From Dehalococcoidia bacterium (GTDB lineage Bacteria; Chloroflexota; Dehalococcoidia; Lucifugimonadales; Australimonadaceae), in the NCBI GenBank assembly GCA_965248495.1, contig CBDFJL010000003.1:1182643-1246642 (forward strand): a stretch of 64,000 bases of DNA. The letters are read 5' to 3'. Shown in pieces: positions 35,500 through 37,388 of the stretch. The first letter of the stretch is position 1, and every line of letters starts with the position of its first letter. Made by a program: the position numbers and the translations under genes. The notes below the pieces were generated by a model. The model did not search any database, was not told where the DNA came from, and was given only the letters and a program-made list of their open reading frames with translations.

Positions 35500-35576
35500 G
35501 GGCGGATAGCTCAGTCGGTTAGAGCGCCTGCTTCACACGCAGGAGGTCGCAGGTTCGAGTCCTGCTTCGCCCACCA
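35500..35576 (+). tRNA. tRNA-Val (anticodon CAC), CCA encoded
   Basis: Manual cloverleaf: acceptor GGGCGGA/TTCGCCC, D stem GCTC/GAGC, anticodon stem CCTGC/GCAGG with loop TTCACAC, T stem GCAGG/CCTGC with loop TTCGAGT, then ACCA. Confidence 0.95.
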
Positions 35577-37153
35577 TTTTGTACGGTAGACAGTACCGAG
35601 CCGTTCAGGGCCACCTTTTCGGCGACTCCTCCGGGTATGGAGCTATCGTCGGGCATGGGAACGGTGTAGCGCATAAGGGCGTTGCCTGGCATGACCACGA
35701 TCTCCTTGACGAAGCTCTCGATGAAGGCCCTGCGCTCGGTCAACTCGCTCTCGTTCAGGAACTCGCTCATGTCCTGGGCGTAGGCCGTGATGGTCTGCAC
35801 GTCGTCCAGGACCTCCCTGCGCTGGGAGAGGATTGCTCTCGCTTCCTGAGCCGAAGACTCAAGGCGCTCCTGCCGCTCCCGGTGGTCGCGGATGCGCGGG
35901 GTAACGTCGGCCATATCGAGCTCGGTGGTCTCGACGAGGTTGTAGAGCCGGTCCAACCTGCGCCTTACGTCGGCAAGCTCCGAGTCGATGGTCTCAAGCC
36001 TCTTGCGCTGCTCGCTGGCCACGCCATCCATCTCCTCGTCCACCACCTTCACCAGGGCGCGGATGCTGCTCTCGGTGAGGATGTTGGAGCGAATCTTCCC
36101 CACGACCAGCTCCTCGAAGTTCCGGGCGTTGAGCCTGGGGGAATCGCAGGCGCCGCTGCCGCGCTTCATGATCGACTGGCAGACGTAGTAGGAGAACTGG
36201 CCGCTCTTGGAGTCCTGGCCTGAGAGCGCCCTGTTGCAGGTCTTGCACTTGACCAGTCCGCTGAGCAAGTAGGAGCTTCCCACCCTTCGGGGGTGGCTGA
36301 CCTTGGGTGCGCGGGAGCGCATCAGCTTGTTGACGCGGCGGAACTGGGCCTTGGAGATGATGCCTGGGAACGCTTTGTCTACGCGCACCGGCTCGGCATT
36401 GTCCTTTGCTTTCGCGCCCCAGACCAGAGCGCCAGTGTAGACCTCGTTCTTGAGGACGGCGTGGACGCTGGTCTTGCCCCAGAGCTTTCCTGCGGGGCTG
36501 GCGATGCCCTCGTCGTTGAGGGTGCGAGTGATGTCAGTCATCCCCCTGCCTGCTTCGGCCATATCGAAGATGCGCTTGAGGATGGGTGTGGTTGTCGGGT
36601 CGGGCTCCAGGGTGGGGCGCTTCTTGGGACCGTCCTGCACCATGACCCTGTTGTAGCCGTAGGGCGTCCTGCTGGCGACCCAGAAGCCTCTGGAGGCCGC
36701 CTCCCGCATACCCCGGAGAACTTCCTGGGCAAGATTCTCACTGTAGAACTCGTCAACGGACTCGATGATGCCTTCCAGTAGTCTGCCGGTGGAGGTGTCC
36801 TCAGCCTGCTCGGTGATGGAGACGACGCGGATTCCCTTGCGCCGGAGCATCGACTTGAAAGCGACGGCGTGCTCGCGCTTTCTGGTGAACCTGGAGAATT
36901 TCCAGACCAGAATCTCATGGAAAGGCGACTCGGGTCTGCTGGCCTCGTCGATCATCTTGCGGAACTCCGGCCTGTCCGCGACGCGTCCGCTGTGGGCCTC
37001 ATCCACGTACTCGCGGGCGATAAGGTAGCCGTTCTTGTCGGCGTAGTCCCGAAGCGCCCGAAGCTGTGCGGCAATGGACAGGTCCACGTCCTGGCGGTCG
37101 CTGGAGACCCTGGCGTAGAGGGCAGCCGGTGTGGGGTCTTGTCGCTCACTCAT
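35519..37153 (-). CDS. large serine recombinase
   Basis: 544 aa; YARVSSDRQ catalytic-Ser motif, recombinase domain, zinc ribbon CKTCN...YYVCQ, coiled coil; last 19 codons are antisense to the tRNA. Confidence 0.85.
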   Translation of the reverse strand: MSERQDPTPAALYARVSSDRQDVDLSIAAQLRALRDYADKNGYLIAREYVDEAHSGRVADRPEFRKMIDEASRPESPFHEILVWKFSRFTRKREHAVAFKSMLRRKGIRVVSITEQAEDTSTGRLLEGIIESVDEFYSENLAQEVLRGMREAASRGFWVASRTPYGYNRVMVQDGPKKRPTLEPDPTTTPILKRIFDMAEAGRGMTDITRTLNDEGIASPAGKLWGKTSVHAVLKNEVYTGALVWGAKAKDNAEPVRVDKAFPGIISKAQFRRVNKLMRSRAPKVSHPRRVGSSYLLSGLVKCKTCNRALSGQDSKSGQFSYYVCQSIMKRGSGACDSPRLNARNFEELVVGKIRSNILTESSIRALVKVVDEEMDGVASEQRKRLETIDSELADVRRRLDRLYNLVETTELDMADVTPRIRDHRERQERLESSAQEARAILSQRREVLDDVQTITAYAQDMSEFLNESELTERRAFIESFVKEIVVMPGNALMRYTVPMPDDSSIPGGVAEKVALNGSVLSTVQNGGRSRTRTCDLLRVKQAL

Positions 37154-37388
37154 CTGTGCGTCCTCCTTGTGCTTCTGCTTGTTTGGCCCTGAGCTCCTCC
37201 ACCAGGCGCTCCACGTCTTCGGGGGCGATGCCCTGCTCTCGGGCGCGGCGCTGTCCGTAACGCACGAGGCTTCTCCACTCGCGGTCGTCCATGTAGAGGC
37301 GAAGGGCCTCCCGGATGAGCGAACTCATGGTGCGGTCCTCCTCGGCCATCACCTGTTTGACCTGCTCGGCCATCTCCGGGGAAGTCAT
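37146..37388 (-). CDS. ribbon-helix-helix (CopG-like) protein
   Basis: 80 aa; MSSLIREALRLYM RHH signature; 8-nt overlap with the recombinase start. Confidence 0.7.
   Translation of the reverse strand: MTSPEMAEQVKQVMAEEDRTMSSLIREALRLYMDDREWRSLVRYGQRRAREQGIAPEDVERLVEELRAKQAEAQGGRTDE

Follow-up and report, generated by a model that had tools for sequence, protein, structure and literature searches.

A serine recombinase gene that ends inside a tRNA gene

In the 64,000-nt window analysed here, a stretch of the Dehalococcoidia bacterium assembly GCA_965248495.1 (contig CBDFJL010000003.1, positions 1,182,643-1,246,642), the reading frame of a large serine recombinase (LSR) ends inside a tRNA-Val gene on the opposite strand. 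The locus raises the question of whether the two genes overlap by coincidence or whether their overlap is the junction at which a mobile element joined the chromosome. The genes concerned are the following.

35500-35576, plus strand: tRNA-Val(CAC), called by ARAGORN, the sole tRNA in the window
35519-37153, minus strand: LSR in its integrated-state frame, 544 aa, recognised by its Pfam domains
37146-37388, minus strand: 5′-truncated ribbon-helix-helix (RHH) gene, 80 aa (intact form, 90 aa), recognised by sub-threshold Pfam matches and homology

The LSR matches Resolvase (PF00239, 2.2e-32, residues 10-156), Recombinase (PF07508, 4.7e-22, residues 187-281) and Zn_ribbon_recom (PF13408, 1.6e-11, residues 296-355). 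Its segment YARVSSDRQ aligns to the catalytic segment of PDB 3GUV and carries the serine nucleophile motif. The protein also matches the catalytic domain of TP901-1 integrase (3BVP), and its best NCBIfam match is CcrB, at 1.1e-38, yet far under the CcrB cut-off. The ORF is intact and has only two window-specific substitutions when set against the 97-99% identical copies at tRNA-Ala(TGC), tRNA-Met and tRNA-Ala(GGC) of other genomes. The enzyme is probably still active.

The 58 nt shared by the ORF and the tRNA gene encode 18 residues (GGRSRTRTCDLLRVKQAL) and the TAA stop and also take in one base of the Asn codon that comes before. This entire stretch is the reverse complement of tRNA-Val positions 20-77, with residues 527-544 and the stop read from tRNA antisense. 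The initial annotation had proposed that the frame ends in the antisense of tRNA-Val and that the tRNA supplies the stop codon, and both points hold to the nucleotide. For annotation, this means that the last 18 residues of the called LSR are tRNA antisense. A scan of 35400-37900 for promoters and terminators, which is of little information for this phylum, found none.

Chance does not account for the overlap, which marks the junction (attL) left by an integration. The same register between recombinase gene and tRNA 3′ end recurs in both paralogs in this genome, at 9 of 28 loci from relatives and at 30 of 80 from other genomes. The register was measured in these 80, and at the 30 the tRNA 3′ end precedes the end of the Gly-Gly codons by exactly 6 nt. 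In attL, the B arm is supplied by the 3′ part of tRNA-Val(CAC), a single-copy gene in an ARAGORN search of the whole genome, which in relatives stands at the head of a Val-Leu-Arg tRNA cluster. Our main reading, to which we give a probability of about 0.85, is that the LSR is the integrase of an element, E1, which inserted by attP × attB exchange into the CCACCA (71-76) of tRNA-Val(CAC), and that attP lies within the integrase gene itself. It draws on the junctions, the cognate inverted-repeat arms, an 8-nt repeat and the family-wide register of the tRNA end, all of which were observed.

Attachment sites and content of E1

E1 is a mobile element of 5.5 kb, at about 35577-41091 of the window, and is itself decayed. 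Its ends and contents are listed below.

35569-35576: GCCCACCA, 8-nt direct repeat, copy 1
35579-35597, minus strand: E1 P′ arm, inside the LSR gene at the VLSTVQ codons; matches GGTACTGYCTACCGTMCAA with 0 mismatches
37382-41039: E1 interior, absent from near-identical modules elsewhere
37315-37947, plus strand: C39-like peptidase ORF (Pfam)
38062-39036, plus strand: 324-aa ORF without a Pfam match, a membrane protein by eye
39908-40084, plus strand: short transposase-like fragment, by eye
40113-40583, minus strand: further ORF, unassigned
41040-41083, minus strand: E1 P arm, placed by arm geometry; contains the 19-nt inverted repeat of the P′ arm (41061-41079)
41084-41091: GCCCACCA, copy 2, the attR core of E1; copies 1 and 2 are the only ones within 35000-42000

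The GGTACTGYCTACCGTMCAA pattern has 2 matches in the window, against 0.01 expected. They are the 19-nt arms at 35579-35597 and 41061-41079, which lie in inverted orientation and each adjoin GCCCACCA; the arm at 41061 agrees with the P′ arm of E1 at 17 of 19 positions. Joined in silico, the ends give a palindromic attP with 19-nt arms (17/19), a 14-nt spacer and a central CC that corresponds to tRNA C71-C72 (35571-35572). Identity between attP and the tRNA site is limited to 8 nt, and the short site, the inverted-repeat arms and the central dinucleotide are together characteristic of a serine integrase. The crossover zone is probably CCACCA at 35571-35576, the last six bases of copy 1 of GCCCACCA, and the exact crossover dinucleotide would be C71-C72. 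A more extensive second copy of the tRNA-Val 3′ end was also sought: its last 24-32 nt, with ≤3 mismatches allowed, do not recur in the window, where the repeated sequence is no longer than 8 nt and the array continues past the window end.

With attP in this position, integration would split the integrase gene, because attP lies inside its 3′ end. The codons for ...VLSTVQNGG would constitute the P′ arm and core, and the last 17 codons and the stop would be carried on the P arm, at the opposite end of the integrated element. In the chromosomal state the frame would continue into tRNA antisense as far as a stop, here the TAA in the D-arm, and in the excised circle it would end in the conserved tail PNWTVGSTIFEMWLGRP followed by a stop, which the minus strand of the E1 P arm encodes. 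The tRNA itself would remain intact, because everything 5′ of C71 is chromosomal and the sequence 3′ of the crossover is regenerated from the P′ side. A stretch of about 52 nt at the P arm is 83-92% conserved, without its surroundings, in five loci (L117, L132, L028, L141 and L131) and at a second place in the same genome.

The RHH ORF overlaps the LSR start by 8 nt, and 61 of 80 loci have an RHH gene as the upstream partner. The copy in the window scores below the cut-offs of both RHH_1 (19.2 bits against 20.5, covering profile positions 8-37 only) and Antitox_RHH (25.3 bits against 27.2), and the intact 90-aa homolog at L074 (7736-8008) reaches 30.1 bits with RHH_1 over profile positions 2-37. 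Missing from the window gene are the first 13 codons, which include the DNA-contacting beta-strand, plus whatever lay upstream; homology to six 97-99% identical modules ends at 37381. The initial annotation had suggested a directionality or regulatory factor. The RHH gene is a conserved partner, but the window copy is a 5′-truncated remnant, should be annotated as such, and cannot be assumed to work as a directionality factor here.

Beyond 37381, E1 shares no homologous DNA with L073-L078. Its interior has been replaced, and the RHH gene was cut short. E1 may be immobile, because it is far smaller than its relatives and has lost the RHH 5′ end. A cognate P arm was found within 8 kb upstream at none of 58 other loci, with the window, read by eye, as the positive control; typical elements are consequently longer than E1. 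The RHH-integrase module alone (1.8-2.3 kb) was considered as the mobile unit, since homology among near-identical copies ends close upstream of it. Such a minimal unit was ruled out: the break points vary (5970, 6728, 7276 and 7594; 37381 in the window), and none has a P arm.

A tandem array beside tRNA-Val(CAC)

The distance from tRNA-Val(CAC) to tRNA-Leu(CAG) is 50,320 nt here, and in relatives it is 322 nt (G001, same genus), 13 nt (G004) or 2.6 kb (G012). What follows E1, and what lies on the other side of tRNA-Val, is as follows.

41092-41902, minus strand: left end of a second element, E2, with its own P′ arm ACGTGTACTGAACTGCGAACT and a recombinase remnant (homology and Pfam)
33460-34497, minus strand: tyrosine integrase, on the opposite side of tRNA-Val
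26675-26718, plus strand: orphan tRNA-Val 5′ half at the far end of the tyrosine-integrase element, a 44-bp repeat of 35500-35543

In E2, the zinc-ribbon and C-terminal parts of the recombinase are left (ORF 41150-41899; tblastn, and Zn_ribbon_recom at 2.1e-9). The left end is 95.7% identical over 93 nt to a junction at tRNA-Val(TAC) in G004. E2 measures about 44 kb and extends beyond the window end to about G000:C3:1,267,500, and its cognate P arm and GCCCACCA sit about 1 kb before tRNA-Leu(CAG). E1 and E2 are two self-consistent elements in tandem, because each has its own distinct P′/P arm pair with GCCCACCA. Newcomers would insert beside the tRNA and shift older elements downstream, which would place E1 and then E2, with its decayed recombinase, between Val and Leu; on this insertion order E2 is probably the older. 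An empty site with the same flanks was not seen: no homology links the Val-Leu spacer of G001 with the roughly 1 kb that separates the end of E2 from tRNA-Leu, and for that reason the virgin attB is a reconstruction. For annotation, the approximately 50 kb that follow tRNA-Val are mobile DNA that has accreted there.

The initial annotation had described a second recombinase-bearing unit on the tRNA used by the tyrosine-integrase element. The tRNA is indeed shared, at different sublocations: the LSR uses the CCACCA 3′ end, and the tyrosine integrase the 5′ half up to the anticodon stem. The LSR side, however, is the tandem array of E1 and E2, not one unit. Between its 44-bp repeats, the tyrosine-integrase element has a GC content of 0.67-0.70.

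A recombinase family at tRNA genes ending in CCACCA

The LSR family is abundant in Dehalococcoidia. It is present in 13 of 41 relatives, with up to 29 matches in one genome, and a sample of 301 genomes from across the class contained 161 with a match at E <= 1e-20. No member was detected in G001, which belongs to the same genus and is 77% complete. The family sits at eight different tRNA species. All 32 of the occupied tRNAs that were compared (Val, Ala, Ile, Lys, Met) end in CCACCA, as against 13 of the 50 tRNAs in this genome, and tRNA-specific bases start at position 70. Occupied tRNAs are restricted to CCACCA enders.

Enzymes that are 97-99% identical occur at Val-CAC, Ala-TGC, Met and Ala-GGC, and modules that are 98-99% identical to each other lose their homology within CCACCA, where the sequence passes into different tRNAs. 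When the occupied tRNA was mapped as a label on the enzyme tree, 46 changes were counted, compared with 48.4 for shuffled labels; enzyme phylogeny and choice of tRNA are not linked. Each tRNA would present a different right half of attB, the part downstream of the tRNA gene, which would be unusual for serine integrases.

ARAGORN finds no tmRNA in this genome, and Rfam locates one at C3:1775967-1776315. Among the matches listed for this genome and the other carrier relatives, none lies at the tmRNA gene. A pattern-based scan of IMG/VR viral contigs found no close relative. In a metagenome scan, a strict attP pattern gave 0 matches, a count to be read against the fit of the same pattern to only 1 of 207 loci; a protein query returned 6 contigs, mostly short.

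Alternative readings of the locus and of the swapped tail

The whole 50 kb from Val to Leu could instead be one element, with no 5.5-kb unit inside it and with 41061-41091 as an internal relic or spare att site. Such a reading would suit an E1 interior without homology to other family elements, and also the relic P arms found elsewhere in the 50 kb, such as the inverted copy at G000:C3:1254032-1254081. We judge it improbable, since the 41061 arm fits the P′ arm of E1 (17/19) and since 41091 is followed by a different P′ type and a second recombinase remnant, with a matching P arm at the far end, which is the pattern expected for two nested att pairs in tandem. We give almost no weight to the LSR being a fixed host gene, or the tRNA being cargo of an element, so that the overlap would reflect compact packing. 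The intact, sole Val(CAC) gene and the intact recombinase ORF would be in keeping with this, but the gene is patchily distributed (13/41 relatives, not G001), multi-copy and found at eight tRNA species; near-identical modules lose homology inside CCACCA and continue into another tRNA; and the Val-Leu-Arg cluster is kept in relatives that include some where no recombinase was found. A fixed, non-mobile region in all relatives, which the initial annotation had named as counting against mobility, is contradicted by the same distribution. The tRNA-derived tail, likewise, is not part of a full C-terminal tail common to homologs without tRNA context.

Integration of E1 at tRNA-Val(CAC), the preferred reading, bears on the protein as well as on the DNA. 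Joining the E1 ends in silico yields a 545-aa protein that ends in GGPNWTVGSTIFEMWLGRP and a stop, and natural genes in L117, L132, L028, L131 and L141 end likewise, with the stop at nearly the same position. Insertion swaps the last ~17 residues of the enzyme for tRNA-antisense sequence; the idea that the C-terminus differs between integrated and excised states gains support from the in-silico form and from the recurrence of its tail class in relatives. No excised circle was seen. Whether the lost tail does anything is a separate matter. It may be functionless, an option to which we give somewhat less than even odds: the working protein would end at about residue 526, the rest would be tolerated read-through, and the conservation of the "tail" would be that of attP DNA. 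Integrated-state tails range from 1 to >150 residues and differ by tRNA, as this would predict; the codons of the P′ arm, read in antisense, give the inner tail (WTVGST / LTVDRT), so that WTVGST is a product of the palindromic DNA site and not of protein function; and McMurdie et al. leaned to a similar view for DsiB (PMC3146451). The outer 8 codons, on the other hand, lie beyond the usual 25-bp half-site, and their variation is mostly synonymous (four Leu codons, three Gly codons, CGC/AGG for Arg). Their pN/pS is 0.11 in the GGPNWTVGSTIFEMWLGRP class, with 0.19 for a second tail class (..TELRTFRWEV.. and a stop), values obtained from 7 related sequences each in sets chosen by peptide motif, which biases pN downward. 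The stop position is also kept within each of the two tail classes. These features suggest that the excised-state tail matters for function. A further proposal, which we regard as tentative and rather doubtful, is that the clade inserts at any tRNA gene ending in CCACCA, reading the T-arm and acceptor end and little downstream, and that the far-arm tail of 17-19 residues is needed for integration, its loss on insertion providing built-in direction control without a separate factor.

Relation to known systems

The resolvase-recombinase-zinc ribbon order of the LSR is that of phage and island serine integrases (A118/LI, SPbeta SprA, TP901-1, phiC31, Bxb1; CcrB of SCCmec), as are the short att sites, with imperfect inverted-repeat arms and few bases common to attP and attB. 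Each of those enzymes recognises one specific site, as a rule in a protein-coding gene, and has its attP outside the integrase gene; unlike them, the family described here uses many tRNA 3′ ends and has attP within its own coding sequence. To our knowledge, known serine integrases are each limited in nature to essentially a single target, which in most cases lies in a protein-coding gene. The motif that this family appears to use is short and occurs in a quarter of a genome's tRNA genes, which the insertions appear to leave intact. If confirmed, this would be a different targeting logic for serine integrases, which are prized as genome-engineering tools for their short sites and because no host factors are needed, and it would help explain plasticity regions beside tRNA genes in Dehalococcoidia, including organohalide respirers. 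Location of attP inside the int gene is known from IntP/IntX of Myxococcus phage Mx8 and from SSV-type archaeal integrases, in which integration at a tRNA alters or splits the gene and the prophage protein has another C-terminus. These are tyrosine recombinases, and their mechanism and att architecture differ from those of the LSR. The gene-spanning attP found here makes it possible to test an integrase that has one sequence when its element is integrated and another when it is excised.

Of the known systems, DsiB of the Dehalococcoides ssrA islands comes nearest, and the design in which gene and att site overlap was already known from it (PMC3146451). DsiB is a CcrB-like large serine recombinase of about 540 aa, from the same class, that adjoins attL (McMurdie et al. 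2011, BMC Genomics 12:287, PMC3146451). Its 3′ end always overlaps attL and takes its stop from the target RNA gene or a neighbouring island; insertion takes place at the tRNA-like 3′ end of ssrA, a single-copy RNA gene that is left intact, and islands pile up in tandem downstream of it (PMC3146451). The authors proposed that the DsiB gene is perhaps complete only on the circular form (PMC3146451). The window LSR likewise adjoins attL, with its 3′ end overlapping attL and the target RNA gene, and here too elements have accumulated in tandem (E1 and E2, ~50 kb from Val to Leu). Several tRNA genes (Val, Ala, Ile, Lys, Met) are targets of the present family, in place of ssrA; its repeat measures 8 nt and the site is centred on C71-C72, whereas DsiB has a 20-bp repeat and inserts in the T-loop; and its partner is an RHH gene (61/80 loci), whereas DsiB is accompanied by a small serine recombinase, DsiA, and by RecF, ParB and Mom genes. 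Pfam detected no DsiA, RecF-like, ParB or Mom families among the neighbouring ORFs of the window and L075.

Two ssrA-overlapping recombinases in genomes that are probably Dehalococcoides (G078 and G098; 569-571 aa) align with the LSR over residues 10-323 only, at 25-27% identity (E 3e-22 and 7e-20), and enter the RNA gene in a frame other than that of the window LSR. On this level of sequence identity, the LSR and DsiB would belong to different LSR subfamilies.

Dehalococcoides has genomic islands at tRNA-Ala, tRNA-Val and tRNA-Lys, and those beside tRNA-Ala-1 have been described with a site-specific recombinase and repeated tRNA 3′ fragments (McMurdie et al. 2009, PLoS Genet 5:e1000714, PMC2764846); HPR2 of Dehalococcoides begins at the tRNA-Leu/Arg/Val cluster, the same cluster as here. 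The available excerpts of PMC2764846 and of the HPR2 accounts note islands and a recombinase gene, and in those excerpts the family, the in-gene attP, the CCACCA core, the use of multiple tRNAs and the excised-state tail do not appear. Genomes that we place in Dehalococcoides or Dehalogenimonas carry LSR homologs that are 41-48% identical and whose 3′ ends overlap tRNA-Val, Ala, Ile, Met and Asn.

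A recombinase gene that ends inside a tRNA gene

The large serine recombinase (LSR) at the tRNA-Val(CAC) locus reads antisense into the tRNA and is preceded by a small ribbon-helix-helix (RHH)-like frame. The features that bear on the analysis are as follows.

35500-35576, plus strand: tRNA-Val(CAC), the sole tRNA gene in the window
35519-37153, minus strand: LSR ORF, 544 aa, with Resolvase, Recombinase and Zn_ribbon_recom domains
37146-37388, minus strand: RHH-like ORF, 80 aa, overlapping the LSR start by 8 nt, with sub-threshold ribbon-helix-helix matches
41073-41902: recombinase remnant of an older element, E2, comprising the zinc-ribbon and C-terminal parts only

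The LSR and tRNA genes share 58 nt: the C-terminal 18 residues of the protein (GGRSRTRTCDLLRVKQAL) and its TAA stop are read from tRNA antisense, from the CCA end as far as the D-arm. This overlap and the adjoining 80-aa ORF had been described in the initial annotation, which was right in every detail; its interpretation was also largely right, with two corrections, concerning a truncated RHH gene and an array of two elements. The catalytic segment of the LSR, YARVSSDRQ, aligns to a solved LSR catalytic domain. The protein differs from its closest relatives at 3-9 residues, only two substitutions (Q54H and G429E) are specific to the window, and the enzyme may still be active if transcribed.

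The RHH gene had been proposed as a partner of the recombinase. A related ORF immediately precedes the recombinase gene, on the same strand, in 61 of 80 loci, and the intact form is a 90-aa protein (MPRTTKVITFSLPPEM...) that scores above the Pfam RHH_1 cut-off. Homology between the window and six near-identical modules ends at 37381, with unrelated DNA upstream, and in the window gene MTS stands in place of the first 13 codons, which include the beta-strand. The family thus has a genuine partner gene, of which the window copy is broken; the intact protein may act as a repressor or a directionality factor.

The overlap is a property of the family

The source genome holds two further copies of the LSR gene, one N-terminally truncated (60% identity) and running antisense through tRNA-Ala(GGC), the other frameshifted (63-66% identity) and running antisense through tRNA-Ala(TGC). 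Each of the three tRNAs is single of its kind in that genome. The family was found in 13 of 41 related genomes, with up to 29 matches in one of them, and in a class-wide sample 161 of 301 genomes contained a match at E <= 1e-20 (a tally that includes genome G243, used for no other claim). Of 80 loci from public genomes, almost all titled as Dehalococcoidia MAGs, 30 have the tRNA 3′ end exactly 6 nt short of where a conserved Gly-Gly codon pair of the recombinase ends; in the relatives, 9 of 28 loci likewise have a tRNA at the 3′ end of the recombinase gene. All family members share ...ALNGSVLSTVxxGG and diverge directly afterwards, the continuation being set by the adjoining DNA. Overlap of LSR and tRNA is thus a family property.

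Other arrangements also occur. Seven loci in the relatives (L009, L013, L016, L034, L086, L093 and L118) are convergent pairs of serine recombinases, ~57-59% identical, whose 3′ ends overlap on a palindromic site that has CCACCA as its core, each gene reading the antisense of the other; such pairs are present in at least 10 of the 80 public loci. One family member (L100, OZ244832.1) lies at tRNA-Val(GAC) in a chromosome-level MAG titled Candidatus Aldehydirespirator and listed under Actinomycetota, which represents either cross-phylum transfer or a labelling issue.

Two elements inserted in tandem at tRNA-Val

In G001, a genome of the same genus, tRNA-Leu(CAG) and then tRNA-Arg(GCG) come next after tRNA-Val(CAC), across a gap of 322 nt; the gap between tRNA-Val and tRNA-Leu measures 13 nt in G004 and 2.6 kb in G012, two further relatives. 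In the source genome it is 50,320 nt; roughly 50 kb has therefore been inserted, extending beyond the window end. The 322-nt spacer of G001, a genome without a recombinase match, ends in a degenerate copy of the tRNA-Val 3′ end (CTGCTTCGCCCGCCA) that is probably the scar of a since-lost element.

The final 8 nt of the tRNA (GCCCACCA) occur just once more within 35000-42000, at 41084-41091. Directly to the left, 41061-41079 is a 19-nt inverted copy (17/19) of 35579-35597, the LSR codons for VLSTVQ, and these are the only two matches to the arm in the window, where 0.01 are expected. The 5.5-kb element, E1, is thus bounded by attL (tRNA, CCACCA, P′ arm) and attR (P arm, CCACCA). The DNA past 41091 belongs to E2, and its first ~90 nt are 95.7% identical to the recombinase 3′ end beside tRNA-Val(TAC) in G004. 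E2 has a P′ arm different from that of E1, and an inverted copy of it, followed by TTAGGCCCACCA, lies ~1 kb before tRNA-Leu, at ~G000:C3:1,267,500 on the source contig. With two self-consistent att pairs in tandem, anything other than two successive integrations at the same tRNA would be hard to explain. The second recombinase unit that had been assigned to this tRNA is therefore real, but it is the head of a two-element array rather than a lone unit.

E2 encodes a DDE_Tnp_1 transposase ORF (41456-42715), an ECF sigma factor followed by a DUF4349 gene (44162-46122), a Replic_Relax protein (46743-48287) and an IS21-type IstA/IstB pair (51951-54091). An ORF of >2,400 codons (56726-64000), open at the window end and built of dozens of diverged repeats spaced at 156-204 nt, lies within the inserted 50 kb and may be E2 cargo. 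Further into E2, G000:C3:1254032-1254081 (~window-equivalent 71390-71450) is an inverted relic of an E1-type P arm that would encode ..WTVGSTIFEMWMG. On the opposite side of the tRNA, the tyrosine-integrase element (26675-35543) has as its ends a 44-bp repeat of the tRNA 5′ half, and beyond the left copy the DNA still resembles a tRNA, with 14 nt deleted from the T-arm. GC content is 0.67-0.70 within this element versus ~0.63 elsewhere in the window.

An attachment site common to many tRNA genes

Joining the ends of E1 in silico yields two arms and a 14-nt spacer (GGTACTGCCTACCGTCCAA, TTAGGCCCACCATT, TTGTACGGTAGACAGTACC), symmetric about C71-C72 of the tRNA. Six further modules share 97-99% identity with the window copy and are situated at tRNA-Ala(TGC), tRNA-Met, tRNA-Ala(GGC) and in three non-tRNA contexts. 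Their homology to the window stops within or right after TGGTGG, the complement of CCACCA, and to the left of that point, from position 70 on, each adjoining tRNA keeps its native bases, U70 in the case of tRNA-Ala among them. Judged from sequence comparison, this break points independently to the same site as the attP symmetry centre.

All 32 occupied tRNAs among the collected loci end in CCACCA (Ile-GAT 9, Ala-GGC 6, Val-GAC 5, Val-CAC 3, Lys-TTT 3, and Met, Val-TAC and Ala-TGC 2 each). This ending is found in 13 of the 50 tRNAs of the source genome, the three occupied ones included. On a tree of the 80 recombinases the tRNA label changes 46 times, compared with 48.4 when labels are shuffled, so there is no extra clustering, and sister enzymes at branch lengths <0.03 occupy different tRNAs. 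The enzyme would read features common to its targets, namely CCACCA and the T-arm, whose GTCC block they have in common at constant spacing, and strand exchange would occur within CCACCA; the DNA downstream of the target tRNAs is variable. The mechanism is ordinary serine-integrase chemistry, put to unusual use in that attP lies within the gene and the target is common to many tRNA genes.

Beyond the window, within G000:C3:629641-641040, the 52-nt P arm of E1 recurs at 92% identity, 11.3 kb downstream of tRNA-Ile(GAT), and the downstream flank of that tRNA (gacttgacgaaa) resembles the second recombinase type at its 3′ end. Among the recombinase matches reported for the source genome none falls in this interval, which may be an element that lost its integrase.

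A C-terminus that depends on integration state

As had been suggested, the LSR C-terminus differs between states: the integrated gene encodes 544 aa with a tRNA-antisense end, and the gene excised in silico encodes 545 aa, ending GGPNWTVGSTIFEMWLGRP before the stop. Five natural genes (L117, L132, L028, L131 and L141) terminate in GGPxxTVxRT(V/I)FEMWLGxx, and a second tail class, GGPxxTELRTFRWEVxx, is encoded by the E2 P arm. The inner part of the tail is set by the palindrome, LTVDRT being the antisense of VLSTVK. The outer 8 codons fall outside a 25-bp half-site, and their mostly synonymous variation (pN/pS of 0.11 and 0.19 for the two classes, from 7 sequences each that are few, related and picked by peptide motif) suggests that selection acts on the excised-state tail and that this tail is translated. 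Chromosomal genes with such endings also arise where an element abuts the P arm of another, as in the E2 remnant.

Comparison with known systems

A close precedent in concept, from within the same class, was published in 2011. McMurdie et al. (PMC3146451) described ssrA-specific islands of Dehalococcoides that form tandem arrays and carry a serine recombinase of ~540 aa, DsiB. The 3′ end of its gene always overlaps attL, with the stop supplied by ssrA or a neighbouring island, and the authors proposed that it is perhaps fully functional only on the circular element. DsiB at ssrA thus has the same design as the window LSR at tRNA-Val. Whether the window LSR belongs with DsiB was examined in three complete genomes of the class (1.4-1.5 Mb; GC of the loci 0.44-0.49), two of which contain a recombinase of 569-571 aa whose frame runs into the 3′ end of the tmRNA gene. 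We infer that these genomes are Dehalococcoides and that the gene is DsiB. In contrast to the design, the protein is only 25-27% identical to the window LSR, over residues 10-323 alone, and it enters its RNA gene in another frame. The same genomes, and two putative Dehalogenimonas, also encode homologs 41-48% identical to the window LSR, whose genes run at the 3′ end into tRNA-Val, Ala, Ile, Met and Asn.

McMurdie et al. 2009 (PMC2764846) reported islands at tRNA-Ala, tRNA-Val and tRNA-Lys, along with a recombinase gene adjoining tRNA-Ala-1, and a 2018 preprint has plasticity region HPR2 beginning at a tRNA-Leu/Arg/Val cluster. A minority of tycheposons carry a large serine recombinase. None of the papers found in our literature search describes the tRNA-targeting family as such, and none describes the CCACCA core, the range of tRNAs occupied or the conserved tail of the excised state. 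Beside tRNA-Asp in G078 (L196, G078:C1:1002172-1006455) lies a serine recombinase of a different kind, with 27% identity to the window LSR, and its C-terminal residues (..WRPQGDSNPRSPP) resemble tRNA antisense; if this putative overlap is real, reading into a tRNA is not confined to one recombinase lineage.
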